Shown one piece after another: positions 3,003 to 61,302 of a stretch of DNA of 64,000 nt (position 1 is the first letter of the stretch; every line of letters starts with the position of its first letter). The position numbers and the translations under genes were made by a program. This DNA is from Psammoneis japonica (taxonomy: Eukaryota), in the NCBI GenBank assembly GCA_008632985.1, contig QPGO01000082.1:248001-312000 (forward strand), written 5' to 3'. The notes under the pieces were generated by a model that had not been told where the DNA came from, did no database searches, and worked only from the letters and a program-made list of their open reading frames with translations.

Positions 3003-3104
3003 TTTTCGATATGTGATGATGAAAGTGGTTGTTATGTCGTATTCAGTGGATGGCTCTAGATGGATGCATCCATCGTTAAAATTCAGATTCTCAATTCTGG
3101 CTGA

Positions 3105-15000: not shown

Positions 15001-16315
15001 CCTGCTTTGGCAAGAAATGTGCTGCATGTGCAAAATGGCACACACAAGACACGTGCAAGAAAAAATTCTGCAACCCCATGTGCAATGATTGCCATCTGTC
15101 ACTTGCTGCATGCCTTCTCTGCTGTTGCAGCTGATGCACTCTCCAGAGATGATCATGTTGTGCAATGCAAAACATGGGCCAATGAAGCGTTCACACAGCT
15201 CCTTGTTTGCACAGCTCCATTTTCACACAGATGTGCCAGTCTCGCAATTTCTGCAAAATGTCTTTCAACAACCTGCTGTGCCAGTTGCTTGACAATGTGC
15301 AAGAGGGTTGCAGTGCTGGTCTTCTGACTTGAGCTCCTCAGCAGCTTCAGAAAAAATTGCTGCACTGCATGATTTGAAGCAAAGTTGGTTTGTGATGACA
15401 CCAAACCATCTCATGGCAACAAGGCAGTTGAAACAGATTGACCCCTTGACATGCTCCAAAGATTCTTGGCTGCATGGCTTTCCCCTTCACTTGTGTGGCT
15501 GGGAGTGTGAAAATGGGCACAATGGCTGAGCTCTTGCAGCAGAACAAGGCATGACCTTCTGGGTCTTGGCATGTCAAAAAACAAGATCTGTTGTTGAAAA
15601 AGCCAAAAACAATGCTCAAACATTTGAGTGCTGCTGAGCCAACAGCAGGTTGGGAAACTGAAGAAACAAGAAGAACTTCAGAAAGATTCTTGTCAAGAAG
15701 CAGACAAAGTGCAAGTGCTTGATGCAGAAGAAGCCAAGGAGCACTCTGTGGCAGATGACAACAAAACAGGAGAAGAAGAGCCTCTTGGTTTTTGAACTTG
15801 GACAGCAGCCAGTCAACATCAAAGGCGCTGTTTGTGGGAACAGGCCATGTGCAATTTTAAAAGCAGGGCAGCACCCAGAAGCAGTCAAGGCTGTTCAGAG
15901 TCTAAAGCCCAGCAAAGCATGCAAGTTGCCACAAGAAAATGTTCTGCAATGTGCAGCACAGTGCAGGTTGTCAACAACTGGTGGTTGTTGTCCAGCCAGA
16001 CTCCCAAAGAAAGGCTCAGAAAACACTTCTTGTGCATTTTTCTTCCCTGCAAGGATTGCACTGCAGACAACATCAATGTGTCCACCAGCTGTGGTGCAGC
16101 TGGCAATCATCAACTTGTGTTTGCAGCTCAAATGAAGGGTTTTTGCAACACAGGGTTTCCTCCAAAAACTGTCACAGCTTTGAAGCATCGCCATCTGCAC
16201 AGAGAGAAGTGATTTGCAACAAACCCAGAAGTTGTGTTGTTGAAGATTTGATGGGCACAAAGCTGTTGCTTTGCTGTTTTTCACACAACCACTGCATTGT
16301 TGTTTGTGTCGGTTG
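9100..16315. mobile_element. Old degenerate transposon block, depleted of TpA and CpG
   Basis: Very few TA or CG, saturated with TG/CA; spurious Cys/His-rich ORFs in all six frames; contains a Copia gag relic. Confidence 0.75.
10100..11870 (-). pseudogene. Copia-type gag / zinc knuckle / protease relic
   Basis: Fragments ATCKDVKEKISRCTQKEFKQG, SLGNDACPKDLDRAMDALLNH, CHCCSKEDHKSPDC (CCHC knuckle), VLDNCS (protease-like) and ANILS, broken by frameshifts. Confidence 0.65.
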
Positions 16316-21492: not shown

Positions 21493-24400
21493 GTTGGATG
21501 TTTGACTCTGGACACCACAATGTGTTCCCTGTGAAAAGTTTGGCATGTTGGAGAGCTGATGTTTGGGCGACACAAGATGAAGTGTCTTGCATGATGGACA
21601 ATCTGTCTCAAAAGGCTGTGTTTGTTTTCAAGCTTCATTTGTCAAAGTTGGTTGGAAGGATTTGAAAATGCAAAACATGCAACTTGTGAGCTGGCAGCAC
21701 ACTGACACACTCGGTTTGCACACAACTGTCTGGCACCAGCCCCACTTGCTCTGTCAAAGTCAGGTCCCAAACAATGTGCTTCATCATTGCTTTCTTCTTT
21801 GTGCTCCAATTCCATCAGTTGGTCATTGTGTGCTTTGTTGCCTGGAAAGTCTTTCACACAACCAGCAGCTTTGACCAAATGCTTTGTGCAAGTCTCTTGC
21901 TTGTGACACACTCTTTCTTTAATCTTGCGGCTGGCCTCTTCAAAGCAGGCTTCACATTGCTGCCACAACTGCCAAGCACCTTGTCAGGATTTTGCAGCAT
22001 TCTTAGATGCTCATCTGCTGCAAAGCTGTGCTTGCACAAGGCGACATTCTTTCCAAGAACAACCATGAGTGCCAACTCCAGTTTTGGTTCTTCCACACCA
22101 ACAACTTCAACAGCAAAGGAGCACAAGCTGGTCTTTGAGAAACACTCCAGCAGGTTTTCACATTCTTGCAGGGCACCTGTGAGTTTTGAGCTTGGTGCCT
22201 TTCTGTGCTTCTGGATTGAGAGATCAGCTGGGACAGTCAGCAGCACCCACGTCAAGTGCCTTGTGCTTTGGAAAAAATTGAGTGTTTTCTTTTGTTGTTG
22301 TTGTTGGGGCATGGTTGCTGGCACTTGGCATGCCCCAGTCTGCTGCTCAAGAGTGCTGGTGCAAAGCAAGGTGAGCACTTCTTACACTTGCCCAGGAGAA
22401 AGAAATGCACCCAATGTGGGATTTCTTGATTTGCTGCATTGGAGCAAATGGCAGTGAGGCCACAGCATCTTTTGGATGTTGGCAAAGAGTGCTGCCACAG
22501 CAGCAGCAACTCTGTCTTCAGCAACAGCCTCAAGCCAGAATTTCTGCACTTTTAACTGACACAAATGTTGGTGCTGAAACCCACTTGATGGCACTTGCAA
22601 GAAATCCACACTGGTGCAAACACAACACAGCTGCACATGCTGCGCTGGCTGTTGTTCATTTTCTGGTGCTGTGCCAGAGTCACACACCAAAACAAGGTGT
22701 CTCCAACCCTTGTTTGTGCATTTGGCATTTTCACAAACTCTAAATCATTGGCTTCAACTGGGCCACAATGTGTCATTGTGCAACTCTTGCTGTGCAGCCA
22801 CTTGCCCACTCAACTTTTTTCCATCTGCATCCAGTGTGGCAAAGATGGAGAGCAGGGGGCAACAACACCACACTGTTGCAATGGTGTTTCACCTCAGCAG
22901 CTTGCACACACACTGTTGTGCTCCCAAGAATCAGAGAATTTGAGGTGACTTCATGCTGTCATCTTCATCTGCAAGCAGCAATGGCAGTGCAAATGAAGCC
23001 ATGCCAACAATGGATTTCTTCCTCCCAAAGCAAGCAGGAGAAAAGAGCCCAAGTGTGGTTGGCATTGAGACAGACAGACAAGCCAGCAAAAATCAGAGCT
23101 GGTCAGTCCTGCTGCCTGTGACATGCTGTCAACGAGTTGTTGCATTGGGTGCTTGTGATGTGCACAGCTTTCTTTTCAACTCTGGCAACAAAAAACATGC
23201 ATCAACTGCATTTGAAAGAGTGCCAGAAGCAAGAATGCAGTTCTTTGTTGCAGCACAGAAGACAACCACAGCGGGTTGGACAGACATGGACACTTGGTGC
23301 CACTGGACTCTGCACCTTGGCTCACACCATTGGCTTGAGCACTGCATGGTCCTGGCAGTGTGCAGGGCAATGGGTGAAACAGGTGGATGAGCATGAGGAC
23401 CTCCTGGTTGCCTTGCACAAAGATGTGTTGTTTCACCTCACAATTCTCATGGGTTTGCATGGCACTGCACACTCCCTTTGCCTGTGCATCATTTTGGCAT
23501 GAACATCTGAGCCTTTGTCAGCTTTTTTCAGATGCTGCTGACTTTGGATGGAATTTCTTTTTTGCTCAGACAGGAAGAACACATCAGTGGCAGGCTGCCT
23601 CTGGTGCAGAACATCTCTTCACCAAACACAGCAATTTTCTCACTTGGGAAATCTGTGCTGAGAGTTGAACAAACATTGGCTGTCTCATTGAGAGAAATGA
23701 TTTTGACAAATTGTCACACTGTCACAGGTGCCCAGCTTGCAAGGGAAATGAAAAATGTGGAGACAACAGCAGCGCTGGGTTGGGCAAACAAAAGCTCACA
23801 CCCTGTGAGCAGCACACCACCTTTGCAGGTTTTTTTGACCCACTGACAGCTGCTGGAAGGCAAGGCAAGCTGTGAAGCTTGGCATCACAGCACTGCAATG
23901 ACAGGCACATTTTGAGGTTTGTGGAAGACATTTTCAAAGAGAAACCCAGAAGCATGCAGAAAGCAGTGTTCTGGAGCTTGGTGATGCAAAGAAAGCAGCA
24001 AATGAGTCTCCTTCAGGGACCACAATTTTGCCTGTTGCAGCTTCCACGGAGTGTGTGCACTGAAGATGTTGCAACTTGCTTCAAAAACAAATGCAAAGCA
24101 ATTGCAGGCATCACAGCAGTGGTTCCACACATTTCCTGATTTTTCAACATCACCATGCATCACCTTTTGACATTTCATTGAGAATCAACCAACCGTGGCT
24201 CCAAAGCATGTGGTGCTGGGATGGGAATCTAGCAAATGTGCTCTGGGAATGTCGACCATCTTGTTGTGGCAAATGATTTGACACATTGTTGTGCTGCCAT
24301 GAGTGGCCAGCTTTCCAGGAAAACAAAACATGTGGAAATGATGGATGCCGCTGGGGTGGGAAATGAAAGCTGACACCCTGCATGCAAGCAACACATCCAT

Positions 24401-26750
24401 GCACTGTTTCTTGCAGGTTTTTTTGACCTGCTGACAACAGCTTAAAGGCTGGACATGCTGTGGAGCTTGACAGTGTGATGCTGCTACAACAAACACATTT
24501 TGGCTTTTACAGAAGTTGTTTCTGAAGTTCAGAGAAGCATGTGAAAGCAACATCCTGGTGCTCAGTGTTGTGGGGAAATTGGCAAATGAATCTCCTTGAA
24601 AAACCCCATGACTTTGCCCACTGCAGTTTCTGGTTTGTGCACAGAACATGTTGCATCTCATTCCAAGAACATTCAAAGCCATTGCAGGTGCCATCGCCTG
24701 CCCCCCTGCATGTTCTGATTTTTCCACATTGCCAGGTGGCACCGCTTGATGTTTCATTAAGAGTCGCCTGACCATGGCTTCAAAATGTGATGGGACAGAA
24801 ATCTGACTCATGTGCTCTGGGAACACATCTCAGTGCTGCCGCAGAAAGCAAGGGTGCCATGGTCTCCAGCCTCTTTGCTATGGCATTGCTTCTTTTTGGC
24901 TCTCTCAGAGATCACCAAAAATGGCAATTGCTGTCTCAGATGAAGTGACATGGCAAAAGATCAATTCCACCCTCAACGCCATTTGCCACACCCTCTGACA
25001 TCTGGAGCAGCACATGGCAAACCTTTGAACAAATCTTGATTGACTTGCACACATGTTCTTCCAACACAATCCAAAGAGATGAAAGACATCAAAGGTTGCA
25101 GAGCTGAGAATCAGATGCAGAAGACCACCCAGAACCACAAAGCTGCTGTGGCGAGCAATGAAACATTGAAGAGTGTGACTTCTAAAGCCTCCACTCTGTT
25201 CTCACCTGCAAGATCCCTTGCCAAAAAGATTAGAAAGGTCGCTGGATGAAATTGTTGCATGAGAGCAGTGTGCGGAAGCTTTGGTTTGGGCACCCAACTG
25301 AAAGACCTGACAAGAGAAGAGCAAAAGGGAAACTCTCAACTTGCAAGAAATCCAAAAACTGGAGGCTGCACTTCCATGATGCAGCTGCACTGGGTTTGAG
25401 GATGAAGAACTGTCAAAAAACAGAAACAAGAGACCACCCCAAATCACACAGTTGCTGCAGTGAGACAAAAGACATGAAAGGTCACAGAGCTGAGAAACAG
25501 ACACAGAAGACCACCCAGGATCACAAAGTTGCTGTGGCGCACAATCAAATGTTGCAGAGTGTGACTTCCAAAGCCTCCGTTCTGTTCTCACCCATGAGAT
25601 TCCTTGCTAAAAAGATTGGAAAGGTTGCTGGGTGAAGTTGTTGCATGAGGATAGCACGCAGAAGCTTTCAATTTGGGCACCCAATTGAATGACCTGACAA
25701 GAGGGGAGCAAAAGGGAAACTCTTGACTTGCAAGAAATCTAAAGCTGAAAGGTTGCACTCCCTTGATGCAGCTGTGTTGGGTTTGACGATGAAGAGCAGC
25801 TGTCAAGAAACAGACACAGGAGACCACCCTGAATGATCACACAGTTGCTGCGGCAAGCAATGAAATGTTGAAGAGCACGCAACGGCCTTCAAGGCCTCTG
25901 CATTGTTCTTGCCTGTAAGATCCCTGGCTAAAAAGATCAGTGGGACAGTTGAGTGAAATTTTTGCATGAGAGTGGTGCACGAAAGCTTTCAGTCAGGGTG
26001 TCTGACTGGACGACCCAACAAGAGGGGAGCAAAAGAGAACTCTCGACATGCAAAAACCCAAAACAAAATGACGGGAATCCTGTGATGCAGCTGCAGTGGG
26101 TCAAGGATGAAAAGAGCACTTCTTGTGTGGACAGTTGCAGAAAAAGCACAGCACTTGACAGAGCAGATGGACTCCTCCAGTCTGTGGGATGTTGCTGGGT
26201 GCCAAGAACACACCACAGAAAATGAGGCACATCACTTGGCCAAGGCCGAAAGGCAAATTGACAGGACATCACTGGGTGGTCAACTCGGGACAGCTGATGG
26301 GCTGATTGAAGACCTGCAGAAGGCTCCTGAAAAGCACATCCCTTGGCTTTGCGGATGATCAAGGCAATGGGCATTGCCAGGTGTCAATCACAGGACAGCT
26401 GATCAGCTTGTCAATGGCACCACAGAGCTCAAGGTGCAGCCAATGAAAAGGGGTTGCCAAAAAATGCTGTGTCCAAGTGTGGACATTCCATTGGCTCTTT
26501 ATGTGGAAGTGGCTGATGTCAGTGATGGAGTTGGATCGGATTCGGATTCAGCGCAACAGTGGGAGCACTTTGATTCGGACTTGGTGCAGTGGTGCAAGAG
26601 GCAGAGCAGGTGAGCCAATGGCCGATTCGAATTGGTGAGCAGGAGATGGTGTCGGATTGACTGTGCAGCAGGATCGGGCTTGGCACGCTGTCGCCATGTC
26701 CCTCCAATGAACCCTCATCAAATTGATGGTTGCTGTGTGGGACAAGAGAG
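21493..26750. mobile_element. Continuation of the old TpA/CpG-depleted repeat block
   Basis: Same TG/CA-saturated composition as 9100-16315; no family assignable by eye. Confidence 0.65.
25085..26110 (+). repeat. Degenerate tandem repeat, about 3 copies of 320-390 bp
   Basis: Recurring agaccaccc, aaaaagat, ttgcatgag and gagcaaaag.gaa.ctct blocks near 25085, 25471 and 25810. Confidence 0.75.
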
Positions 26751-34459: not shown

Positions 34460-37400
34460 GGGGCCGCAAGGGATGGCTGGCATTGTCTTCGCCGTTGAGG
34501 CAGAACAACCACGGCAGGTGATTTCCTCCCTTTCCCACGTCACTTTTAGTTTCACACTCATGCTTGCCATTGTTGTTGCTGTTTGTTCTGTGACATTCGA
34601 GTCACATGCATGGGGTTTGTTTCTCTTTTGTTTTGGCATCAGCCAACACACGTTGCATTGTCATCTCTTGCATTGCCATTTGTTGCTCAGTGCATTTCAT
34701 GCGATGCCTTGGCATTGCGTGCTGGCGAACATCATCTGTCTTTTCATTGTTTGCTTGTTGCATCAGAGTTCTTTTGGAACACGCCATTGAAGCCATGGCA
34801 GCATCACTTTTTTCTCTTGTTGAGGCTTTGGCACAGATGCCAAAGGAGTGGTGAGGGTGTGCACAGAGCAGCTGGCTGCAGTGGCCTTGGTCATCAAGCA
34901 GAGTCAGCAAAAGGGTTTTGTGCTGTCTCCAAGAGTCCACAACAGCTTGAGATGAAATCAGGCCACCAGTTGCCCTTTTTTGTTCTTGATGCGCTGTTGA
35001 TCAACCCACCTGTAAAATGTGACAAAACACAGAAAAAGAGAGCTGATCAGAATGTTTTGGCTTGCCAAAAAGAAGTGTGTGGGCAGGATGCATGATGCGT
35101 GCATTGGCACTGACACAACTGCACAGGGACTTCGACTCGAAACTTGTGATCCTCTTCCCAATGCCTTTTAATTTGCGAATGACAAAAATGATTGTCAGCA
35201 CTGATGCAAAAACTGGCACTCTTCTGCACATGAATGTCCCATCAATGGCACTTGACGGCTTCTTGAGCTCCCAGTGGGATGGCTTGCAAGTGTGCATTGC
35301 CTTGCACATGTGTGATGAAGAGCACATTGGCAAACAAGTGTGACATGCTCTGAGGCACCAAGCAGTCTCCACGCCATGGATTTGCTTGAACTTGAGCAGG
35401 CATTTGAACATGTGGCTCCAATGCAGACACCACTCAGTGCCAAGAAGCAAATCTGGTTTTGCCTCACGTTCTGGCAATGGAGTCTTTCTGCTGTGCATTT
35501 CTTGTCACATTGCTGGGTCTGCACCAATTCTCCATCTTCACAAAAGGAGTGCATTGTGTGACTGCCAGAATCCATTGTGGGATGTGCCAACAAGGCATGA
35601 GCATCACATTTTGTAAGGAGCACAAGGCAACTTGTTGGTTGCTTGTAGTCTGAAGATGACTGTTCCCTGCTGAAAAGCCAAAACAAGTGCCGTGACTAGC
35701 AATGGTTGGCTGGGGGCACATGCAATGCAAAAAAGATGCTGCAACACAACAGAGCAACAGTTCTGTGCTGCAATCCAACCTGTTTGTTCAACACCCCACC
35801 AGTTCTGTCAGTGGGATGCCAAAAATGATGTGACACAACTTCTGTCGATGCAACAAGCCAGTGAGAAACCACAATCAAAAACAAAACAAGAAACCTGCCC
35901 AAGCCATCACAATGTGCCTCACTGTGTTAAAAATCACACCGCATGGGGTGCAGAGGCATGCTTGCTGTTGTCCATGTCCATCATGCCCACACCACAAAAA
36001 CAACCATGATTTCACACTAAAAAGCATGAAAAAGCAGGATGACAAGTGAGGGTTAGCTGAGGGGGATCACAACACATGAAAAACAACACTCAAATGCAAC
36101 AAAATAATGACATTGTGTTGCATGCACGTCCACACTGCTCTAAAATCCATCACACATGTTCTTGTGCCAAAGCTTGTCTCTCTCCATTGTTTGTGCAAAA
36201 CCAGACTTGACTGCCATCTGATCAGGTGCATTTGCTGCAAATGTGTTGATCTGAAAAATGCCTGATCAGATGTCAGTTAATTGTGCATTTTTCACAAAGA
36301 CAGAATTTGCTGTGAAAGACTGACAGATGGTTTGACCTTTGTCTTGGTGGTGCCAGTCTCCACAGCTTTTTCGATTGTGATTGCTCTGCAGCATGAAAGA
36401 CAGCTGCTGAGTCTGAAGGTTCTGGCACTCAAATCAATGTGCCATTTGCACAGCTGTCCCTCAGCCCAATGGCAGCAGTGGGGGCTTGCCCCAGTCTCCA
36501 TCCTTTGGCAGGTCTGCAAGGTCCAAGCTCCTCACACCACAATGACAAAGAGACAGTTGAGAGCAAGCAACAGAGGCTTCACCATGAGTCTGCACAATGG
36601 CTGTTCTGGCAAGGGCTGTGTGTGCACTTGAAGATTGTGTGGCAACATCCACGCTCACAGCCGAGTGATGGCTGCACCTGGAGAGCACACCCACTGACAA
36701 CTGTGCAGAAAATCCCACCACCAGTGCTCCACAGTTGAGCCTCTGCACAACAATCACCTGCTTTGCATGCTGCTCAGTGTGCAGAGCTCCAAGAAGCATC
36801 TGACCTGGAGCTCCAGAGCAGAGCAGGTCTGCTGGGTGTTCGGTCGAGACCTCTGGTGTCTCAGTGGGACAGAGTGCAAGCAGAGTGCTTCTGTGTGCTG
36901 ATGTGCAGTGGCAAGAGAGCTTGGTCAAAAGTCCTTCACAAAGCTGCTGGTGACAAAATTGTGAGCTGCCCAGATTGTGAATTTGGCAAATGGCACAAAT
37001 GGCCAATTTTGTGAGCACTTGCATTGGCAGCCAGTGCACTCTCCTCATGGGCAACCACACTGTTGCTGAAGCAACAGACAAATGTTCCAAGAACATGCTC
37101 TGTGCTTTTAAATCCTCAATGGCTTCACAGTGATCAGCTTGCTGACAGGGTCAATGTGGCTCAAAAAGAAACACAAAAAGAGCTCTGATGGGCAGAGGCA
37201 CAGACACATGTGGACAGACTGGGTTTCTGGGCAGATGACCCATGACTCTCCCTCTGGTGAAAAACTTTGAGAGGTGGGAGGTTCTCTCTGAGAACTTGGG
37301 GGCACACTTGGAATTGCAGCAGCTGGGGCACTCCTCTTCCTCAAAGGCAAGTCCAGGGCTGCTGAGGGTTCAGCAGGAGCAAGACTCCAGCCAGGCCCAG

Positions 37401-39060
37401 TGGAGGTGGGGTCAAGTCAGCAGGTGCCTTGTTTGAGTCCATGGCAGGAAACTTGGGAAGGCATGAGTGGAGATGGCAGGGCATGAGCTGCCAGAGGAGG
37501 CACTTGAAGGGGCAAAGGAGGTGACTGGGAGGTGAAAACATCAGAGGCTGCTTGAAAAATTTTGCACTTGGGGGTCTTGAAATGCATCAACCTTGACTTG
37601 TTGGTCTTCAACCACAGTGCACTGGTGTGCACTGTCTTTTTCCAAAAGGGTGGTCAGCTCTGGAGATCCCATGGCAGACAGCAAGCCCTGATTGGCAGGA
37701 ACAGTGCTGCACCCATCCTCAAAAGCAACTTGAAATTGAAGGGTGATGGCTCCCATTTCAATGCCATCTGGCTGCTCAGGAGCACCAGCAGGGCCACTGG
37801 CAGCGTTGCTCTGCACTGAGTTCCACATGCAGACACACCATTTTGGTGACTGCTTCTTGCCACTGGCAATTTTCTTTTCAAAAGTGCTGATGGGGTGCCC
37901 CCAAACACACTGTGCTGCACGTTCAACTTGCTTGGTTCCTCAATTTTAAGTTTTCTTTTGTGTTTGTTCTGTGTCTTTGTTGGCTTCATTCTTCTCAACC
38001 ACTGCTGTGACAGACAATGATGCTCAATTCTCTGTCACCCTTTTTAACTTGATTTGGCTGCTGATGTGTGCCCTGCATCTCTTTGACTGCGCACTTCAAA
38101 CTGTGGCATTCATCAGACAAACAGTGTCCACAGCCTGGCACACTGCTCAACACACAACTGTGCATTTTTTGACTGCTGTCTTGAGCCAAGGATTGCAGAT
38201 GTTTGAGCCAAGGATTGCAGATGTTGTCTTTTTCCTGCTGGTGCTTGTGCAGAACTTTCTTGTTCTTTGTCAATTTCTAAAGCCTGCCTTTGGTGGTGGC
38301 CTTGACCTGCTCAATGCATTGTTTGAGAAAAAACTCAGACATTGTGGGACAAACAAGCAACACATTCAACTCTTGCTGCCATCTGACAACAACAAAAAAT
38401 TGAAAATGAGCAAACCTTGGCCAGGCAAGAAGACAAAGCATGTGATGCCAGGTCAGCCAAAGTGTGATGCAAGACTCACAAATTGTTTTTTTGCACCAAA
38501 GCTGTTGTCTTCTCACAATTTGTGTGAAAAAACAGAGGGTTGACTGGCAACTGATCAGGTGCATGTCACAAATGTGTTGATCTAAAATGATGCACCTGGT
38601 CAGCTGCCAGTCAAGCCCATTTTTCACAAAGACAAAATTTGCTGCAAAAGATGGGCGGACAATTTCTTGGTGCTGGTGTGCAGAGTTTCCATGCAATGAC
38701 TCTGCAGTGCAAAAGATTGCTGTTGTGTCAACTCACAAGGTTTGCCTTCTTGTTCTTGTGCCCCCCTGTTGCTGGCCTTCCAGGGTGAGGTTTGCACTCA
38801 CAGCAGAATCCTTTGCTTCCCAGGGTGTGGCTTTCCAGCAATGCTCTCTCCTTTTCAGAGGGGGTGAGGAGCTCCACCATGGCAATGGCTGGAAACCCAT
38901 GTCTTTGCCATGGCTGATGAGTCCCAGTCATTTTTGCTGACAAAAGCTGTGTCTGCCATTCATGAAGAGCATCGCTTGGGCAACCTTGGCACTTCTCATC
39001 TGGCAGCGTTGAAAGCTCGATTAGACTGTGTCTCGATGTGCATTCCAAACTCGAGCTCAT
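34460..39060. mobile_element. TpA/CpG-depleted degenerate repeat block
   Basis: Abrupt compositional switch between two normal genes; TG/CA-saturated. Confidence 0.65.
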
Positions 39061-41959: not shown

Positions 41960-44900
41960 ACACCCGCCGTTTTGGCCGGAGCGAGGACTGTTGAATCCAT
42001 CTCAGCAGGTCAGCACCTTGATGACGTGCGACAGTGATCCACAGCACTGGGTCCAGCTGGAGGGCACATCTCCTGCACAGCATGTGCAACAGGAGACGAG
42101 GCAGCAGGAGAGCTGTGATGCTGTGGAGGCAGTGGCCAGCAGGAACATGGTCAAACAAATGTCTGCAGCATGCACACACACCAGCCTGCACTGTGTGTGA
42201 AAAAAATCAGCCCAGTCAACAAGCTGATGCAAGCCAGGGGGCTTGAGCATCATTCCTGTGGCTCAACTGTGGTGGTCTCCAATCTGCGCACGTTCATCGG
42301 CCGGTGCAAGAACAAAGTTTGTCCAAGACAGAAACTCAGCTCCAGTTGCCTGCAAAGAGCTGCTGCAAGGCAGCACTTTCTCTGGCCTGGAGGATGGACT
42401 CAAGCACAATTTGGGGGGTGGGGGTGGCCAGTGGCTTGGGCTGACCAGATGCACTTTTTTCACACAGCTCAGCCAGGCTCTTTGTTGGGCACTCTCTTGA
42501 GGAGTGAGCAGAAGTTGTTGGAACACCGGGGTGCACTGTGGTTTTCTGAGCACAGACAAACAATGTTGCAGTGAAAGATCACTGATGACCATTGATGATG
42601 TCATGAGTTTGCATCATTTGTGAATTCACCATGAAGGTGGGTTTCATGCTCACTTTTTGGCTTGTGCACCAGGGCAGCACGGCAGCAGTCAGCACAGACA
42701 AGCAGTGCTTGCAATCCATGCGGCAAGTTCAGGGGTCAGCAAGACCAACACAGACCAGTTGGCAAGCTGTGAAATCCCAGCTCAGAAGCCAAAAGGGCTG
42801 GCTGGGAAGTCATCAAAAATCCAGAGGCACAGCTCATGTCAGTGGATTGTGGCAAACAAGCTGGCTGGATGAAGCAAGCACCAAAGAAACAGTGTCTGGA
42901 GGACCTTGCTGTGCTGAAAATGGGTGCAGCAAAGTTGTGTAAGACCAGGATAAACATTGACATGGGCAAGGACACAACTGAGTGCAGAAGCATGAAAGAT
43001 TTGAAAGAGTGGTGGGTGTGTGATGCCATTGCTGAATTGGGTCACAACAGGTGGATGGATGTGCAGAGACCTTGAGGAAAACAAGTGAGCATGTCAGAAG
43101 ATTGTTCAGGCTGGAGATGCAGGTGCTGGCATCTCTGAGGCAGAAAAACAATCCACAGGAGCTGGAATGCCCAATGCCCATCAGGTGCAACAGCATCAAA
43201 GAAGGACAAGGCAATCTGGGGGAAACAATGTGATCACTGTGTGAGGCAGGGTGTGACATGCAAGATCAAAAAAGGCAAAGAGGCATTCAACACAATTGTG
43301 GGACAGTGCACAAAAGCCATCCGTCACAAGGTTGAAGGAGTGATGGAGTTTGTGAGGGTCACAAAGGAGTGGGATGTGGTGGTGCCATTGGAAGTTCACA
43401 AGTTGATCTTGTTCAATGCAAATGAGAAATCTGCTCACTTGTTCAGGCTGTCAAGGCTTGGAAACAGCTGGCATCATTTTGTCAGGATGAAGGAGAGCTG
43501 CTCTAAAATCATTGCAGTTGGTTCATGAGTGTTGCTGAGATGGTGAAGGGTCCTGTGCAGAGTCACACTGGAAGAAATTGCCAAGAAAGAAGATGGGGGT
43601 TGAGAGCAAGGATGCTGATGGCACCCGGATAAAAGAGAGGATCAAGTTGTCAAGAACAGCACTGTTCATGGAAGGCAAAAAATGTCAGTGCTTTGCTTTT
43701 GAAGGACTTGCACCAGCAGTTTCCACTGAGGGTTGACAATTGCCCCCCCCCATTGAGCCAGGGATGCACTGCAGGTGTTGAACACATGTGGGGCCAACAA
43801 GGGACTTGAGGAAACGCCAACTTGCAAACACAGAAGAAGCAGTCAATGTGGATGCAGCAAGGGGGGGGCATGTGAGAAGATGTTTTCTCATGGTTTGTCG
43901 GTGGAGTCAGATGCTGAAGTGAGCCACAGGTCTCATGAAGCAGCTGCCATGTTGTTGGGTGCATGATCAGTGTGCATAAGGTCAGTCATTGACGGCTCTA
44001 TGCAAAGGAGTGTTGAAACATCAGGGCATTGTGCAGATTTTCCAGAGGACAGACAGACAATGTTGCAGTGAAAGATCTGATGACTGTTGGTGATGTTGTG
44101 AATTTGCATTTGCAAATTCACTGTGAAGACAGGTTCAATGCTCATTTTTAGCTTCTGCACCAGAAGACACAGCAATCAGTGCAGAGCAGTGTGTGCAATC
44201 CATGCGGCAAGTTTGGGGTTGGCAAGACTGACACAGATCAGTTGGCAAGCCGTGAAATCCAGCAGAAGTCCTCATCTGGAGAGGATGGCTCTTGCCATCA
44301 AAGCACCATGGAAGGCATTGCCAACAGGGCATAAAAACAGCAACTGGTGCAAAATGTGCTTCTTGAGGATGGTGTCAAGCTGTTTGATTTGCTCACAAAA
44401 CAGCTTGCCCTCTTGATGCAAGGCAGAACATGGGTGTGCTTCATGAGCATCATGGGTGAGCCAGCACACCATCACACAGCAGCAAATCAACCACAGCAAT
44501 GTTTGGATCATCTGGGCACCGCTTCATGTCAGCACATGGGCTGGACAGGAGGTGAAATTTGCATGGCAGAGCTGCCCCAAACTCTGTGGGACTTAAATGG
44601 GGTCCAGTGTGTTGGTCCAGGGAAAACAGATGCAAGGTGCCTTTGCTGCAGCCAGCACAAGCAAGCCACAAAGGAAGATCAAAAACAGGTTGGGCTGATG
44701 CCCAAAATAGCCAACTTGTCATGCCAAAAAGCAAAAAAGGTGACAGACGTTGAAGCTGCTTTTGGCCCACCACACAATGTGTGCAAAAGAGTTTGCAAAA
44801 AAGCAACAAAAGTTGTGCCAACAATGGCTTGGGTGCTGTTGGCATGTTTTTCCATGCCATCAAAGTTGTGATGTTGCACTCTGACATCCATCAGGTTTGG

Positions 44901-48820: not shown

Positions 48821-49499
48821 ATTTACTCAGTTTGCTGATATAAGTGGTCGAAACTTGGGAGCCTAACAGATTCAACGGCTTACTTCTAAATGATCAAGAT
48901 CGAATATTCTCACGGGAAGATACAGCCCGGCGGAATTTCGCAACGCGGTTTCTTTGTCGGATCGGATTTCGACGAGATATCCCGAAAACAGCTCTACAAG
49001 AAGTTTGCAATGGAGATCCTTTTTCTCTCTCTCTAGGCTAGACGCACTGGACTTTAACTGGTTGATTCATTCGACGCACCACCATTGGCAGCTCCAGGTG
49101 AAGGAGCTGAGCATGTTGTGTGTAGTAAGTGTGTGCAGACTCCCCCACATGTGAAAAAGACCAACCGCATGTCTCAAGTACCGCTTTCACACGTTCAGGC
49201 CCAGTATGTCAGCCGTTTTGTCTATTCAATCTTATTCAGACTCTAATGTTTTGATAAAATGACTCAGAAAATGTTCGTAATCGGTCTTGAAGGATTGTAT
49301 TCTTAGGGGTCGCGCGACGTCCGTGCGTGCGTGCGTTGCTCACAGTTGCGTCCGTCCGTCTGTGGTGGCTAACTGTTGGGCTCTTGCTTTTGCATGCTTT
49401 TGCTCGCTCTTTATGGTGCCGCACTCTCTACGGTAAGCTCTACTCTCCTATCTACTAGCTACTGTAGCTACTAGCTAGCTCTCTAGCTAGCAGCTGGCA

Positions 49500-51690
49500 G
49501 AGACTGCTCGCCCCCCCTGCGCGCTGCTCTGTTGATTTGGAGGCAGCTTTCTGCGGGTCGATCATTGATCGAGACCCTCGATCAACGAAATGTCGAGCAC
49601 AGGCGCCTGCTGAGCATCTGCGGTGATCAACGAGACTCGAACCCTTGGTCAATGCGGGAAACCTCACCTCTCCCTCTGAGCTCCACATGATAGATTTCAC
49701 AAAGAACGATGATGACGAGTTGCATTTTCATGCATCGTGTCACCGACTTGTGACTCGTCAGATGTGAATCAAGCCCTCCACATGGCTGACAATGTGGCCG
49801 ATGATGCCGACACCGGAGACCATGATGGCGACATGGCTTCGATTTGCCCCCATCCACCGTCACAAACCATTGAACAGTCATTTGAAGCGACATCAGCAAC
49901 AAGGGATTGGGACAAGGAATTTGGGGAGTTCAACCCGGACTCCTTTGAAAGGGATGCCGCGCGCCATGTGACAAAATGTGGAATCAACGAGTGTGGTGCC
50001 ATTGCTGGGGACGGAGTGACCAATCAGTCTACATGGCCAATTGCACCAGAGCAAGTCGCTCTTTTCAAAGATGCGCTCTTTTTTGCGAATCCATTCACTG
50101 ACGAATTGTTTTTTGTTTCAACAGAAGCCGACGCGTTCCAGCCCTGGGTGGGACTCCATGTGACATTGGGCCCGCAGAATTCCACGTGCGAGCTCCGTAG
50201 TGCAAGAATTTAACCAATGGATGTGTTTGTCTTCAACATCAAATAAACGGCCAAGTTTGTGGTGCAATTGTGCCTCTTGCCACTCGACGTTTTTGCAAAT
50301 GCACCTGCCCTGCGCGATTCTCAAGACATCACAGAATCGCGCTGCAACAAAAAATGTCAAAAGTTTTTGGATGGATCGCTCAATGAGTGCACCGTAAAAT
50401 GACACAAAACATCAAAAAATCACGTAGAATTCTGCGTGCGCGACATGCGACGAGATTCAAAAAACTGTGGATGTCACAGTTCAGCAGTGCGAGGTCCCAC
50501 CTGGACCTGGAACGCGTCAGCCACGAGAGACGAAATGATTCATCGTGGGTTTCGTCAGGTGCAGGCAAACCACGTTGTGGACCCATCTTGCCTGCTGGCT
50601 CCACCCCGGCAAGAACAAGCACAAGATTCAGCAGCACCACTCGGCGACCGGTTGCCTCCATCGACATTGCCAAGAGGTGGTGAGAACAAGAATTTTGCAC
50701 CAAAGCTGTTTTTTAAAACCAAAGAGGAAACGTGCACCACTGCAGCAGTCCATGCATGTGAAGAAAAGGTGGTGGATGAAACAAAAAATCAAGTGCATTC
50801 TCCAATCCGCCTGTGGTCATCTGCCGAATTGAAGAAGCACAATCTCGGCGGGGACTCGAAGCTTGCGCAGCGTCTCAAGGCTCATTGGACAATTGAACAA
50901 CCACTCAGAAAGGCGGCCAGCAGCACACATCTAAAACATCTTTGTGTTCTGCATGAGACTCAGATTGTCCATGTCAAAAAACAACACTGATGATGGCGAA
51001 GCAAATCGACTGGCATTGTTTCAAAACACAAAAACACGACAACACAAAGTGCAGCAAAAGCAGCACTGCTGTTTTTTTGCCAATTGAAACTCACCATTGG
51101 CGCCCTTGACCGCATGGCATTGCTTGTTCTGCAGTGGTGGCCAAGGCTGTCACGGATGTTTTGGGAAAGAACGGCCAAAACTCGAAAATGGGGTCTTGGT
51201 CGTCTTCGCTTGCAAGACGACTCCGCTCGTTTCCCTCGGCAACGCACTTCAACAACTCCGCAAGGCACTTCCAGTGACCAACGTTTCGAACCATGGCAGT
51301 GTGGGCCCCACAACGAGAAGCCCACTGGGCGCCCGAGCGTCGAATGCCATGGGACACGTGTGGCAGTCCCAGTGGGCCACAAATGTGTTCCCTGAGCTGC
51401 TTGTTCCAAGTCTGAGTTGAAACGGTAAAAAATGCTGGAGCCTTTGCCTTTTTCATTTTGTTTTCACCACGACAACGCCATTCCTTGAGCATCCACGTCA
51501 CAGGGTCATGTTTCAAGTTCTTTGGATTATGACAAATGCGGATGTGGTGAGGATTTCCAATGTTCACCTTCAACATTCTCAACGGCAAAGCTAACGATTT
51601 AGTGAGAAGCCGAGCTCGAGCCGAGAAGGCCATTTCCGCCATCAAAACCGTTAATCAACGGGGGTCAATGGCCGATCAATCAAGAAAACT
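49500..51690. mobile_element. TpA-depleted element carrying a tyrosine-recombinase relic (Crypton- or DIRS-like)
   Basis: TA-poor island bounded by TAG-rich tracts; recombinase motifs at 51091-51645. Confidence 0.6.
51091..51645 (-). pseudogene. Tyrosine recombinase C-terminal catalytic domain with the presumed catalytic Tyr replaced by Cys
   Basis: SHGIRRSGAQWA (HxxR), VGHWK and LLKCV at the spacing of the nucleophilic Tyr (TGC codon at 51244-51246). Confidence 0.7.
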
Positions 51691-51981
51691 GACGGACAGA
51701 CTACTCTATCTTAGCTAGAGTAGTAGTTGCTACTCTAGTATGTAGTAGTAGAGAGTAGAAGTACCTTGGGTGGACTCCTCTACCGCACCACTTCGTAGAC
51801 TACATGAGAGAGCCGGAGAATAACATCTACCACACGCCAAAGTTCGCCCCACCTGGTCCAATGCTAGAGTAGAAGACACCTTTGCCATATTCTCATCTGA
51901 AAAAGACGGCACAACTAACCAGCACAGACTGCGTCGTCGACAAGCTCACAAACATTTTTCAGACATTGTCTTCTCAATCAA

Positions 51982-54468: not shown

Positions 54469-54745
54469 TGACAGAAAATGAAGGCAAATGGCAAGAATTC
54501 AAACAACAACTCCTTGCTGCTGTCTAAATGGCAGATGAGTCTCCACTCAGAGACCGTTGCAGGAGCCGAAAGACGCGCAAGTCGGCACAATCGGGCTGCT
54601 GTCATTGTTCTTGTGAGCCTTGTGGCTCGAAAGCAAACTGCATCGCGCGCGAACGCGTGGAACTAAAAGCACACAAAACTGTGCGCGGCAAACTAAACAG
54701 CGCGCGACATTTCGCGCGCACCTGAATCCTGTTCAAATCCTGTCA
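54469..54745 (-). repeat. Copia 3' LTR
   Basis: Colinear with 61303-61579 without indels. Confidence 0.95.
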
Positions 54746-57700
54746 CTCCCCAGTTTGCTTGAGGAGCCACAGAAACAGATTCGACTTCGGATGAAATGAA
54801 GTTCCAGAACATGAGGGGGCGGAGAAGGTCCCAGATTTGGGAGCAACCCCAATGCTTGCTGAGGATGTCAGCAGGGTTGCGGGAGCCTTCGATGAAGTGG
54901 AGCCCAAGGCAACCAGAGGCAATTGCCTCACGCACACGGTGGAACGACAGTGCGGTGTGTCGCTTGTGTAACTTGGAGTGCGGGATGGTGGCACTGTCTA
55001 CAACCGACTTGTTGTCACCGAACATGTAACTGACATTGCGGATCGGGACGCCAAGGCAGTGCAGGGTGATGCGCAAGTCAACAATCTGCTCGACACAAGT
55101 CCTTGCGGCAACAAATTCAGACCCGCAGGTCGCAGTCTCCACGGTGGCTTGCTTCTTAGAGAACCAATCAGCCGGGAACTTGTTGAGGAAGTGGAGCATT
55201 CCCATGACAGAGCGTCCGGTGAGCATGCAATGGCACAAGTTTGCATCGACGCAGTGGGTGGTGGTGACGAACTTGCCAAGGGGCGGTGGAGCGTCCTTCG
55301 GGATCATCTCTTCTGCTTCGCCGCACACGGAATGCATCCATTCACAGGCCGGAGCAGGGAGATCCGAATGGTCGGGCTCTCCCGTGCGAACGCGGAGAGC
55401 ACCGTGTCGCATCTTGGAGAGGCACCCACAGACGCGTTTGGCACGATCCAAGTGGCCTTGACAGGGTGCAGCTCGGAAGCTAGAGAGTGACATGACAGCC
55501 GTGGCAATGTCAATTCGACCAAGGGACACTGCCCATTGGAGTGAGCCAACAAGAGACTGGAACTTGTGAATGCCATCGGGTCCCAGCAGTTCGGAAGTGT
55601 CCAGTTCGGGGTGGTCACCCTTCTCCAGAGGTGACAGGACGTTGGTGGCAGGTTTCTCCCCAAACAGTCGGGCGCAGCTGTCGACCATGCGCTTGATGTA
55701 CTTGCGCGGAGACAGGCACAAGGTTCCGTCGGGATCCCGGGAAAAGTCGCAACCCAGATGGAACTCAATGGGTCCCGCACCCTTGAGCTTGAACTTGTGC
55801 TTCTCCGTGAGAGTGTTGACGAAAGATTGAGGGTCCTTCATGGCAATGGCGAGGTCATCCACATAAACAGCAATGCACTCACAGTGGTCGCCGTTCCTGC
55901 ACATCCAAATGTCGGGTTCGGCGCGGCAGGGGAAGAAGCCTTCAGCTCGCAGGCAGTCGGCGAAGCGCTCGTGCCAGCGGAGACCGGAGCTGCGCAGTCC
56001 ACACAGGGCCTTGTGGATGACAAGGATGTGTCCTTCGAGTTTGCCAAATTCGGGTCCGGCTGCAATGTAAAGCTTCTCCTTGGTGGTGGCTTCAAGGCAG
56101 GCATTGCCAATGTCGGTGGCCCATGTCTCCAACTCGTTAAGTTCGGCCAGGAAAATCATCAGCCGAAGGCCACGGAGGGAGACTGCTCCGGAGCAGACAC
56201 TGTCGACAGGTGCATCTGTGAGGTGCCCGTCGGCTACGAGTCGTGCCTTGTGGCGACCGTCGTGTTTCACGTCGTACACCAGGTGCACTCGGATCTTCTT
56301 GTGTCCCGCAGGAGGAGTGGAAGACTCGAAGGGCCTGCAGTCATGGAAGACTTCACATTCGTCGAGTTGGTCCATCTCGAGATTAGTTGCGTCTCCCCAT
56401 TTGCGGTTGCCGTTGCGTTCGTCCAGTGACATGGCATGTTTGCAGTTCCGGGGAACTTCGCATCCACACTTGTGGCGAGGTGCAGTGTGGAAGGAGCGAA
56501 GCTTGGCTTGGCTGGCCATGCGAAACAGCTTCTTTTGGCACCTCGCGATGGTGCGGAACCGCTTCCAGCCATCCGTGTCAAGGAGTCCGTTCTCTCGTGC
56601 ATAGATGGCGCAGGTGACGGGGTTGTCCTTGGCGATGATGGCAAGAGGCTCGGACGTGATCTCCCCACTTTCCCATTCAAGCATGATGTTGTAGCTTGAG
56701 CCTTTCCAGGTTGGGTCGTGAGGCTTCAGAGGTCCTTCGTGTGACACGATGCGTCGAAATTTCCAAATGGCAGTGTCTTCGTCTCCTTGCTCAATGTGAT
56801 TCATGATGTCATTGCAGGCAAGGACTTCCTCGCATTCGTCGTTGTTGACAGAGCAGACGAACTCAGTGAGCTCGGGATTGCCGCTCACTTTCCATTCGTG
56901 GTCTTCGACGGCCTTGACGATGTGAGCTCTGTGGCGTTGTCCGTCCTCTTGTGGCTGCATGAGGAAGGTGCGTCCAATGATGTCTTGCGGATCAAAAACT
57001 GGCATCTTGGGTGTCCTGATCTCCCCATCAGGAGAATCGACGGGGTTGTCATCATGGCGAGATTTGATGATGGGTTCAGGTGGCTCCCCATCAGGAGGAT
57101 CAAGACGCAGGTTTCGAACGGCAGGATCGGTGGCAGCGGAGCGGACGTTGGACCGGCAGAGGATCTTCTGAGTCTCGTCAGAGAGAATCTTGAAGGTCAT
57201 CTGGTGGCCGACGTGCTCAGCAATGCCAACGAAGCGTCCACGCAACTCACGGGATTTGGACGGCCAATCGGAGTCATCGAGGTGGAAGTGCACGGGTTCC
57301 CACCAGTGAAAGCGAAGCAATGGGCTGATGTCCGGGGTGGAGCCAGTGAGAGTCTCGAGGGGCGTGCGCCAGTGGAGACATGGGGATGCTGCATGGTTGA
57401 GTGTGAAGCACACACACATGAGCGCCAGCAGCCATGTGTGGGCGGGCGAACCAAAACGATCCATGACAGTGTTCGCCATGCGCTTCACGGTCTGGTGTCG
57501 ACGCTCGGCAAAGTTTTGGTGTTGCTGGTGAGGTTCACTTTGCCAGCTGGAGATGAAGAGGGCCCGTGGGATCCCGAGCACTTTGTTGCTGATCTCAACT
57601 TGAGCACGGTCGCTGATGAGTTTGGATGGGGCACCACGCTCACGGATCTGATCCTCGAGTGTGTTGACAAACTCTTTGTCCATCTTGGTGCCGTAGACGT

Positions 57701-60363
57701 CAGTGACGGTAGACTCGGTGCCAACAAACAGTTGGGCACTGGTGCAACCAGAGTTGACGGCCGGGGTGTCGGCATGAACGGTGTCAGTGGCGACAGGCTC
57801 GTTGCGGCGGTGCACATTGAGGGCGGGGTTGGGTGATTTGCAGGCCTTCCTGAGGTGTGCACCGGCAGGCATGCGGGCGCACTGCGTGGTGCAGTCAAAA
57901 GTACGACGGACCGTGTCGGCAGGCAGGAAGCCAAAGCAAGGCCAAAGAGACTCGAAGGGCGGGTCCTTGGGCTGTGCAGTGCGCTCCGGGGGCGGGACGT
58001 CGTCGTCCTTGGGGTCAATCGCGTGTAGATGACACTCGCAGAACACGTCGTCGTTCGGAATGAGGTGATCATCGAGGGCGGACGCGTGATCGGCAGACAA
58101 GGAAGCGGACATGATGGTCTCGTTGACAACGACACGATGACGGCAGTTGCCGCATTCGTCAAACAGGTTGGCAGTGGGATCGTCCTGCAGGTCAGAGATC
58201 GCGTCGCACCACTGGTCGTCATCAGTGACAGAGTGATCGAGGACGGAAGGATCCCATGTGTCATCACCGGTGAGGATGACATGGGGCAGGGTGTCCCATT
58301 CGGCATCAGTGCAAGGTCGCATGGCAACATGAGGCAGGCCGGCCTTGATGTCAATGGGGATGACACAGCCATCAGGAGTGGCAATGCGTTGCAAGCCATT
58401 GGGCACCTTGACAGAGTGATCGTTGACATCCTGTTTGTGCCATTCGAGCTGGCCGCAGGAATGGATGGTCTTGCCCTTGCCCGTGTGTGCGTGCTGATGG
58501 AGGATGGCGATGACGGGACCACGCTGGGTCTCAATGACGGCACCAGCGGTGACAACAGGGATGTCCACCAATTGATGGTCGTCAATGCCCTGAACGTCGA
58601 CTTGGCGAGAGGTGCGTGCAATGACGCGAACGTCGTCGCCAGCAATGCCGCCGTTGGCCCCACGATCGACTAGAGTGCCAGTGCGTGTGGAGCGATGAGC
58701 AGAGGCAGAGCAAATGACATTGTGGTTGTCAATGCGGCGGCAAGTGCGGCCGTTAAGTTCCATGTCATCGGCAGAAGCTGGCGGGGTAGAGGGAGTGGCG
58801 GATGGCCCCGGTCGACTGGCATTGGGGGCTTGGTTAGGAGACAACAGACGGTGCAGATCACTGGGTGGCAGTGGCTTGCGCTTGGTGAGGTGCGCCAGGA
58901 TGGGATTGTCCGAAGTGGCACCCACATTTGGAGCAGAGTCACCAGAGTCAGCAGGAGTCGTGTTGGACAAGTTGACATCACCGTCACTCCCAAGGCGTTG
59001 GTCATGAAGGTTGGCCGTAACGGACTCATGGCAGTTGCTGGCTCGCGGGTTACGGGGAGGCGGACGAGAATGCTCAAGGATGATCGCCTTGGAGGAATGG
59101 GGCAACGAATCCCAAATCTGTTGGTGGTCGGGAGGGAGACGTTTCCATTGGTCACCGGCAAGGCTGGGACCACGGGTGCAGGCAGCATCAGCCTGAAGGA
59201 CGTCAATGTCACTGTCAATGTCGTAGAACACATCGTCGGACGGTTCGTCGGAGTGGACATCGTGTGCGCACATGGCACGTCGGGGAGCTCGAGGTGTCGT
59301 CTTGGGTTGAAAAGTGCTGTCGCATTGAGCTGCCGCAGAGAGGAGCAAGCCACAGCATTGATCGCATGTGAGGCTCTTGCCACTCTGCGTGCGATGCTGG
59401 TCAGCTTGGTTCTTGACAGCACGGAGTTCCTCGACAGGGTGCACGGCATTCTCGAGCATGACGCGCTTCTGTCCTTCAGAGAAGTGGTCACTGGCCGGGA
59501 TGAGTGCCTCGCACTTGCGCAACTGATCTTGCCAATGAAGGATGAACCCGTGGGTCGGACCTTTCCAAGCACCATCACCAAGACGTGCGGTGGTGAGGCA
59601 CGTGAGCAAGGTGGAGGACTCGACAGATGCGCGGGTGGAGGCAAGCGCATGCTCAGACAAGGCACGGCAGACGGTCTGGGCGTCAGAAGACCCCACATTT
59701 TCGCGGATGAGAGCCTTGCCCTTGTCGGTGAGAAGGGTGCGTTTGAAGACAGCGAACATGCACTTTTGCTGTTCAGCAAAGAGCAGTTTGTCTTCGAGGC
59801 TGGTCGGTTTGTACGATGAGTCTAGAATGCACTCGACGTCTTGGGCACGGGCTTGTGCCACAAGTGAGGTGTGCCAAGTGTGCCACTGCTTGTCGGATTT
59901 GAGAGCCGTGAAAGCGGTGGGATCACGCTTGATGCCTCGCTTGAAGTCTCGCACTGGGTCGCGTGCCTTGGTCGGGTTGGTGACATGCGGAGGTGCGAGG
60001 GGTGAGCTGCCGATGGACACAGAAGACATGTGGTCGGGGCTGAGGCGGCAGGCAAGGAACTCGTCATGCGTGAACAACGAGGAGTCATTGGCAACGTCAA
60101 GACCTTTGTGTGCTTTGACAATGTGCAGACCAACTAGAGCTGCTAACATGTTCTTACAACCACGGGGCAATGGGATCACACCAGTGCCGTTGTCGCACTC
60201 AAGCGAGTCGATTTGGGACGGCATGAACGTGAACAGTTCCTGATGCGAGTCCGTGCCGTCTTGGGCCAAAGCCAAACGAAGAGGGCTCCCAGCACCTTGG
60301 GCAAGCACGGTTCCAACAACGTGCTCGAAACCATCGGTTTGTTGCTGACGAGTGAGAACCATG
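54693..60363 (-). pseudogene. Copia gag-pol polyprotein, open but hypermutated
   Basis: FKRGIKRD, LVDRGANGG, VATDT..SDRAQ..SEPHQQHQNFAER, DGRHKARLVADG, DIGNACL, YVDD, WFSKKQATVETAT, NPADILSK; only about 10 Tyr in ~1890 aa. Confidence 0.93.
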
Positions 60364-61302
60364 GTAGACGAAAGTGGTGTCAGGACAATCAATTCTTGTT
60401 GGGAAGCGAAGGTAGACTTGAAACTTGGGTGAGAATGGACTTGACTTGAAATGGACTTGACTTGAAATCTTGAGCCATCTTAAAATCAGAAGTCGCCGGG
60501 CTTTGCTGTCCCGTTCGTTGTCAAGTGCTAAACTTCCTGTCCGGTCCGTAGAGTTGTGCCGGCACGTCCGAACCCGCAGCTGGTGGCGCTTTGGGTTGCT
60601 TGCGAGCGGAGCAGCGGGTTGCAAACCCCTGCAGGCAAGCTGACCAGAGGTGGACAAGACCCCCGAACCATTCTTATTTTACATCGGTTGGATTTCCCGA
60701 TCAGGCTGGCCAGTTGACGCAGGCGTCAGGCGCTGTGGACGAACGAACAAACGCGGGAAAGCACCCTCGCCCCAATGCAGGCTGCAATCACGGCTGCTTG
60801 CTCTCACAGTCGTCCTCGTGGACCTGGCAGAACTGCAGAGCACCAGCAGTCCGGGGCAGATCAGGTGCAATGGACTCGGTGTGCTTGTGGAGTGGCAGCA
60901 AAACCACAGTCCGAAGAGTGGGCACAGGTTCTTGGCTGTGAAGATGTGCACATGTGCAAATGTCTTCAGCGGCGAAGATCCTTGAACATGCAGGGTTCTT
61001 GACCGTCAACCGATGAACAGGCACACCAAGGGATGAGGATCAAGGACAGACTTGGATGTGACCGTTGAATGCATGTCTTCAGCGATCAAAGGCAGCATGA
61101 TCAATCCAGACATCCAGCGGCAAGGAGACTTGACGGTGACGTTAACTTCCTGCCGATGCCCTGGTGTTGAATGCGCGCAGACTTGCCGATGTGTGTAGAA
61201 CACATGCTGAGGTCCACGCAGAAATTGAAGTGGTGTCATTGGCAAATCAACAACGATGATGGCGGTTGCTCAATGGGTTGACAATGAGCAAGACTGTTGA
61301 TC

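Follow-up and report, generated by a model that had tools for sequence, protein, structure and literature searches.

A decayed copy of a dispersed element in Psammoneis japonica pairs a Cre-like tyrosine recombinase remnant with a convergent gene and is probably a Crypton-type DNA transposon

To our knowledge, the control of Crypton excision and integration is barely known. Among the closest described systems, the CryptonS elements of oomycetes and Phaeodactylum have TATGG-type termini in the majority of cases described (Kojima and Jurka 2011, PMC3212892), and CryptonF-1_cRei of Chlamydomonas is presented as an active element that carries a GCR1_C domain and targets CAYCG (Lopez-Cortegano et al. 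2023, PMC9977147). In Bigelowiella natans, integrated viral DNA is described as undergoing TpA hypermutation (Mettrop et al., 10.64898/2026.01.13.699255); the mutator whose traces are reported below matches the hypermutation set out in that 2026 preprint and is not itself new.

The locus studied here lies in a window of 64,000 nucleotides of Psammoneis japonica (contig QPGO01000082.1, positions 248,001 to 312,000), the whole stretch of DNA that was analysed. A preliminary description had reported a tyrosine recombinase (YR) relic whose catalytic Tyr had been converted to Cys, and had raised the possibility of a Crypton-like DNA element. We consider it likely that the locus is a dead copy of a dispersed element of ~3 kb, which encodes a Cre-like YR and a convergent gene of ~300 aa (ORF2) and is probably a Crypton-type DNA transposon. 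Its features, in positions of the window, are the following.

49401..49482, other half at 51719-51800, no strand: CTA/TAG-rich host flanking tract, by triplet counts the likely split target
49483..51718, minus strand: whole element copy, 2,236 bp, delimited by end alignment across copies with unrelated flanks
49483..49490, no strand: terminal CTAGCTAG, ORF2-5' end; CTAG in 4 of the 5 right ends shown, TA-mutated in the fifth
49782..50897, plus strand: convergent ORF2 remnant of a ~300-aa family, split by a MITE; no significant Pfam or PDB match
50130..50518, no strand: 389-bp MITE of an unrelated high-copy family, lodged in ORF2; it has terminal inverted repeats and is flanked by a duplicated 4-bp target
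51075..51564, minus strand: YR C-terminal remnant, P0001 residues ~372-534, 54% identity to P0001
51244-51246, minus strand: former catalytic Tyr codon, TGC (Cys), aligned to Cre Y324; TAC in copies C17 and C36
51564..51565, no strand: 1,074-bp internal deletion junction; gap of 1,074-1,079 bp relative to copies C17, C120, and C5
51565..51714, minus strand: left subterminal region, non-coding, containing TTGAT-type motifs; identity to four other copies 95-99%
51715..51718, no strand: terminal CTAG, YR-5' end; of the 11 left ends shown, 8 have CTAG or a TA-mutated form, and two of these have one flank in common
54693-60479, minus strand: Copia pol, open frame of 1,928 aa, RVT_2 E 5.7e-24

The minus-strand frame at 51091-51654 reads HGIRR...GHW...LLKCV and contains no Tyr in 187 aa. 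By itself it gave no match in Pfam or PDB sequence searches, and its recognition as a recombinase therefore rests on relatives. A PF00589 search over the host genome returned 0 candidates, its controls being detected in 14 cases out of 14, and no Rfam family was matched. A longer sister copy in the host genome retrieved an intact relative of 534 aa, P0001, to which residues 31-187 of the window ORF align with 84 identities in 157 positions (E 1e-62), so that the resemblance is not due to chance. Searches with P0001 yielded 343 clusters at E 0.001 or better. Alignment of 152 family proteins, in which spanning rows only were counted and gaps were scored as misses, revealed a conservation of 84-92% per column for R325 (116/128), K366 (117/127), H443 (109/129), R446 (114/128), W469 (105/123), and Y478 (106/123). 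The homologues thus carry Tyr at the column in question, the remaining rows being 11 gaps, 2 C, 2 H, 1 L, and 1 other residue.

A 59-sequence profile of the family matched Cre variants only in the PDB (E 2e-7), placing Y478 on Cre Y324, and Phage_integrase, the sole Pfam match among these members at E 0.01, was found in 19 of the 59 (best 4.6e-7). A profile search of the kind proposed in the preliminary description finds no Pfam family with the window ORF alone but succeeds through its relatives. An alignment-based AlphaFold model of the YR reached a pLDDT of 84.8 (32.8 for the single-sequence model), and its top Foldseek hit was Cre (E 2.7e-7), followed by XerH and Tn1549 Int. Judged by alignment and predicted structure, the family belongs to the tyrosine recombinases of the Cre/lambda-Int superfamily, with the R-K-HxxR-W-Y set kept and a modelled Int-family fold.

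One YR cluster bears a Prymnesium label and the nearest ESM Atlas cluster is mostly haptophyte (one record); none of the 20 clusters looked up, most of which are unlabelled, has an oomycete label. Several relatives differ in architecture. In P0092, a member of 1,239 aa, a C-terminal YR is preceded by a long N-terminal region of low complexity in which a C2H2-like motif occurs. L104-L107 are short metagenomic elements in which only the YR C-terminal motif is found, between complex inverted repeats, and may be non-autonomous derivatives. In L103, a tandem array of ~55-bp repeats (3060-3307) lies immediately downstream of the YR, with a weak ORF2 match further on.

In the window copy, positions 51091-51564 represent the C-terminal third of this Cre-like YR. 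The active-site codons found there are those of H (51349-51351), R (51340-51342), and W (51271-51273). The motif by which the relic was noticed is present to the letter, but the family reads HSxRR...GRW, so that the G of HGIRR and the H of GHW are mutations private to this copy, and the H/W catalytic position is occupied by the W of 'GHW' and not by its H. The first ~27 codons of the ORF as originally read (51565-51645) are spurious and correspond to the non-coding end of the element, fused in frame by the 1.07-kb deletion, which took away the N-terminal domain and start codon of the YR together with R325 and K366. A 1-base frameshift also lies near 51121, where a contig has a one-base insertion. 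The active site is not intact, R and K being deleted and Y being now Cys; given the loss of R and K, the Tyr to Cys change did not by itself kill this copy. The conversion as such is confirmed, with TGC at the Tyr column of the family and TAC in two sister copies.

The rho TA value is 0.05-0.08 in the coding parts of the element versus 0.59-0.60 in the flanking genes, and the TA-rich host tracts at the element edges are untouched, with values of 2.0-2.6 right up to the ends. Among six close copies, there are 136 ex-TA sites at which some have TG where others have CA or TA, and two copies agree in the direction of mutation at 47-76% of sites, these concordance figures (0.47-0.76) being lowered by the choice of sites that vary among copies. 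Transversions pair C17 with the window copy, C36 with C120, and C5a with C5b. Over 17 aligned copies, the catalytic codon encodes Cys in 13 (three of them near-duplicates), Tyr in 2, and Ser in 2. Since C17 and C36 keep TAC and their sisters have TGC, the change probably arose several times, and these sister pairs date it to after insertion, the change being attributable to a TA>TG transition. C17 moreover has the same ORF2 deletion as the window copy, other flanks, and an unchanged TAC, which makes it likely that the window copy lost its Tyr after its last move.

Flanking bases have a marked effect on TA survival, which is 35 of 113 in YTAR versus 11 of 196 in RTAY, and all five Tyr sites of the window remnant (5/5) are now His or Cys. 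The catalytic TAC is the only surviving RTAY site in C17 and in C36 (1/35 each). In the host genome, GTACG outlasts RTACC, with a relative survival of 0.05-0.15 versus 0.004-0.007 in a count that includes both catalytic sites. Selection may have kept the catalytic Tyr but is not claimed here, given this slower context and the fact that C17 and C36 are both broken elsewhere. In the Copia family, the Tyr of YxDD survives in 18 of 30 copies versus 205 of 1005 when all 34 ex-Tyr codons are pooled, in a tally whose query excluded the motif. The mutator thus strikes Tyr codons according to sequence context and does not aim at catalytic motifs; as the TAC and TGC sisters indicate, the loss of a given tyrosine depends on its sequence context and not on what it does in the protein. 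The suggestion that it is well suited to disabling YRs and YxDD reverse transcriptases (RTs) holds in that Tyr codons, because they start with TA, are preferentially lost, but does not extend to any targeting of catalytic sites.

The Copia copy of the window has a rho TA of 0.12 and only 10 Tyr, that of YxDD among them; its family (557 candidates) comprises 150 close copies or more, long open frames being frequent among them, and survival at individual Tyr sites ranges from 0/30 to 29/30. In four blocks of the window (10001-16000, 22001-26000, 36001-38000, and 42001-44000), TA and CG are both nearly gone (rho under 0.2), whereas the element and Copia retain most of their CG.

The host genome contains 31 DNA matches to the remnant, and the copies sit in unrelated flanks. 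Less deleted copies measure 2.9-3.1 kb. Similarity between copies ends on either side at a CTAG (51715-51718 and 49483-49486), which defines the termini from copies with unrelated flanks, as had been proposed; because these ends lie within CTAG-rich tracts, the boundary is uncertain by a few bases. Neither terminal inverted repeats nor long direct repeats were found at the ends, left-versus-right alignments remaining below shuffle maxima. The left subterminal region aligns upstream of the YR in the metagenomic loci L094 (score 56) and L096 (score 52), with shuffle maxima of 33 and 41 of 300, and has no match in L093. These properties, namely dispersal, a YR, the lack of RT, terminal inverted repeats, and long repeats, and a terminal direct repeat of 4-6 bp (CTAG), are those of Cryptons in the broad sense, and bear out the Crypton-like DNA element without RT that had been envisaged. 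The accompanying remark that no RT is visible nearby is inexact with regard to the Copia RT at 54693-60479, but this RT lies beyond the actin-related gene and outside the element.

The element has a host armadillo-repeat gene on one side and an actin-related gene on the other. Its immediate flanks contain 13 and 9 CTA/TAG triplets per 60 bp, compared with a mean of 0.94 and a maximum of 6 in 347 control windows; for C17, one flank is CTA/TAG-rich (7) and the other is not (2). The sequence of the flanking tract is not common to other copies. CTA/TAG-rich tracts similar to it also flank the copies on C17, C36, C120, and C11. On C5 (151160-157270; L034 and L035), two copies lie tail to tail at their ORF2 ends, are 94% identical, and have both lost their right termini. 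No empty target site or circle junction was seen, nor an empty allele in the contigs examined; in read run X1, which may be the window's own source and is not independent of it, the depth changes stepwise where the element ends, and no empty site is present.

What is new in this finding is the conserved partner gene. The frames at 49716-50213 and 50403-50990 form one gene interrupted by the MITE; the 3' end of this ORF2 was lost through a deletion of ~170 bp at 50894/50898, common to the window copy and C17. The convergent ORF remnants that had been noticed at 49737-50990 are accordingly part of the element, the same pairing being found in sister copies. Since the window copy and C17 share this deletion and differ in their flanks, that move did not require an intact ORF2 in cis. 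The MITE family gave 1,545 first-look candidates in the host genome, 40 of which were scored, and an empty site was seen. Its copies have variable 4-bp target duplications and 2-28 TA each, and thus span stages of mutation.

Intact ORF2 relatives are ~300 aa long; one of them, P0164, is 64% identical to a sister copy, and 28 proteins were collected by profile. In the host genome, 14 of the 16 ORF2 matches are on contigs where ORF2 faces a YR, including a distant subfamily on C44: the two genes are convergent on C5 (twice), C17, C120, C83, C36, C11, C44, C52, and C101, and the fragments on C217 and C56 have no adjacent YR. Among metagenomic YR loci, ORF2 was matched in 9 of 26, always downstream and on the opposite strand, these 9 reducing to about 6 independent families; 3 of the 9 loci are within or beside the ORF2 training alignment. 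When only loci with at least 790 bp downstream are considered, 8 of 16 are positive. ORF2 went undetected in the other 8 of these roomy loci (L093, L098, L105-L107, L113 by HMM, L117, and L118), and may therefore be dispensable or lineage-limited; tblastn added weak matches in L108, L110, and L113. The nearest YR and ORF2 clusters are both on contigs sized 3042, 3059, and 3194, which suggests that these are the same contigs.

As for the function of ORF2, nothing was found in Pfam (25 members), in the PDB (no match under E 0.5), or in the ESM Atlas (no usable match). The idea of a split-off GCR1_C domain was not supported by hmmsearch or hhalign. A RusA or other known nuclease was likewise rejected after the same Pfam, PDB, and ESM Atlas searches. 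The predicted complex of P0001 with P0175 scored 0.55, the best of three controls reaching 0.01 and the partner being modelled at a pLDDT of 33. The score mark applied is reached by 51 of 78 solved pairs and by 2 of 108 mismatched pairs; of the pairs that reach it, those scoring 0.60 or under include only 5 of the 78 solved ones, but all 4 of the mismatches that passed (of 180). The prediction runs agree in at least 49% of contacts. This model gives a slight hint that the YR and ORF2 bind each other.

By analogy with the Crypton model, the YR would recombine the two terminal CTAG sites and release a circle, whose single CTAG would then be joined by recombination to a CTAG located within an intergenic tract rich in CTA/TAG. 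More speculatively, ORF2 could assist the reaction by contacting the YR or the termini of the element, for instance to set the direction. After insertion, 1.07 kb of the window copy disappeared, R and K included, the MITE settled in ORF2, and TA>TG/CA hypermutation converted all five remaining Tyr codons, including that of the nucleophile, to Cys or His according to context.

The element could instead be an ordinary CryptonS, or a member of another Crypton group listed in Repbase, with ORF2 as a passenger that has no role in transposition. Several CryptonS traits agree with this, as most of those described are 2.8-3.9 kb long and have short terminal direct repeats, one member is from a diatom, and second genes are optional (PMC3212892), and ORF2 is absent from some loci. 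We nevertheless regard it as rather unlikely. The ends are CTAG and not TATGG, TTACTG, TAATG, or CTGTAAG, and the sole second gene described for the group in that account, a C48 peptidase, is not matched by ORF2 (PMC3212892). The same ORF2 also remains convergent across YRs that are only ~30-35% identical. With regard to other Crypton groups, GCR1_C, expected of a CryptonF, was found in 0 of 59 YRs and 0 of 25 ORF2 proteins, and the 10 GCR1_C matches of the host genome are all at other loci; no DUF3504-type YR, as in CryptonA, occurs among the 59 members at E 0.01. The GCR1_C-bearing Crypton-like YRs of the host genome are only remotely similar to the family (hhalign E 0.0065 and 0.46). These other families (L177-L186), which have a C-terminal GCR1_C and are in some cases still Tyr-rich, include L180 of the NDC10_II type and L177 and L183 of another type.

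DIRS recombinases have a Cre-like spacing. The HSxRR...GRW...Y spacing of the YR studied here is Cre-like as well, and an ALOG/Phage_integrase cluster stands among its ESM Atlas neighbours at 0.97, both of which would suit a YR retrotransposon of the DIRS, Ngaro, or PAT type that lost its RT and RNase H and moved in trans. Such an origin seems very improbable in view of the four near-full copies of 2.9-3.1 kb, whose space is filled by YR and ORF2, and of a two-gene layout conserved over distant hosts. The element has no RT or RNase H and no long terminal, inverted, or split direct repeats, and no RT was found among 18 neighbouring ORFs, a subset, scanned from metagenomic loci. We attach an equally small probability to an integrated extrachromosomal replicon, plasmid-like as the yeast 2-micron circle with its Flp, in which ORF2 would be a replication or partition protein. 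Many relatives do occur on contigs of 2.9-3.5 kb, close to the length of one element, and two C5 copies are tail to tail; however, collapsed repeats in short-read assemblies also yield element-length contigs, L094, L101, and L109 have long flanks that contain other genes, L097 has no terminal overlap, and no relative was found in viral contigs or phage records.

The reading as a Crypton-type element with a Cre-like YR and a conserved partner gene is thus the one we retain. More tentatively, the YR and ORF2 might define a group of eukaryotic YR transposons of their own, ranging from diatom-like hosts to haptophytes, in which ORF2 would bind the YR and control excision versus integration. This would constitute a two-component YR transposition system in eukaryotes, with L094, L097, and the P0001/P0175 pair as intact examples. 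A literature search, to which Repbase, Dfam, and subscription papers were external, revealed no description of a YR element with such a convergent gene, a pairing in which this YR faces this partner gene also in the relatives from other algae. The compactness of the element, its conserved second gene and mapped ends, its site of 4 bp, and the existence of intact relatives in the environment make Crypton control testable, and such an element may also yield a new Cre-like tool.

Comparison with the known systems places the element as follows. In the mutations it has accumulated, it resembles the viral insertions of Bigelowiella as the preprint presents them, with TA>TG and TA>CA transitions that affect only foreign or mobile DNA and spare host genes; unlike there, the pattern is read here from transposon copies, is near saturation, and displays a clear dependence on flanking bases. 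As reported for CryptonF-1_cRei, insertion is modelled as recombination of a short terminal motif with a matching target, and the preference of that element for gene-proximal intergenic DNA fits the site in the window; its activity was observed, whereas only dead copies are found here (PMC9977147). With the CryptonS elements as described, it shares a YR, the lack of RT and of terminal inverted repeats, a short terminal direct repeat, a size of about 3 kb, a low copy number, and an algal host, and it differs in its CTAG ends as opposed to TATGG or CTGTAAG and in a convergent ~300-aa gene as opposed to a C48 peptidase (PMC3212892). It is set apart from CryptonS by these described features, termini and second gene, and not by a comparison of YR sequences; its YR matches none of GCR1_C, NDC10_II, and DUF3504, and its relatives reach haptophytes, unlike those of CryptonS. 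The recombinase itself is closest to Cre of phage P1, which is the best profile and fold match and agrees with it in the R-K-HxxR-W-Y set as well as in the H-to-W and W-to-Y distances, but it is only about 15% identical to Cre, extends to ~480-560 aa with additional N- and C-terminal parts, and is encoded by a dispersed element of eukaryotes.
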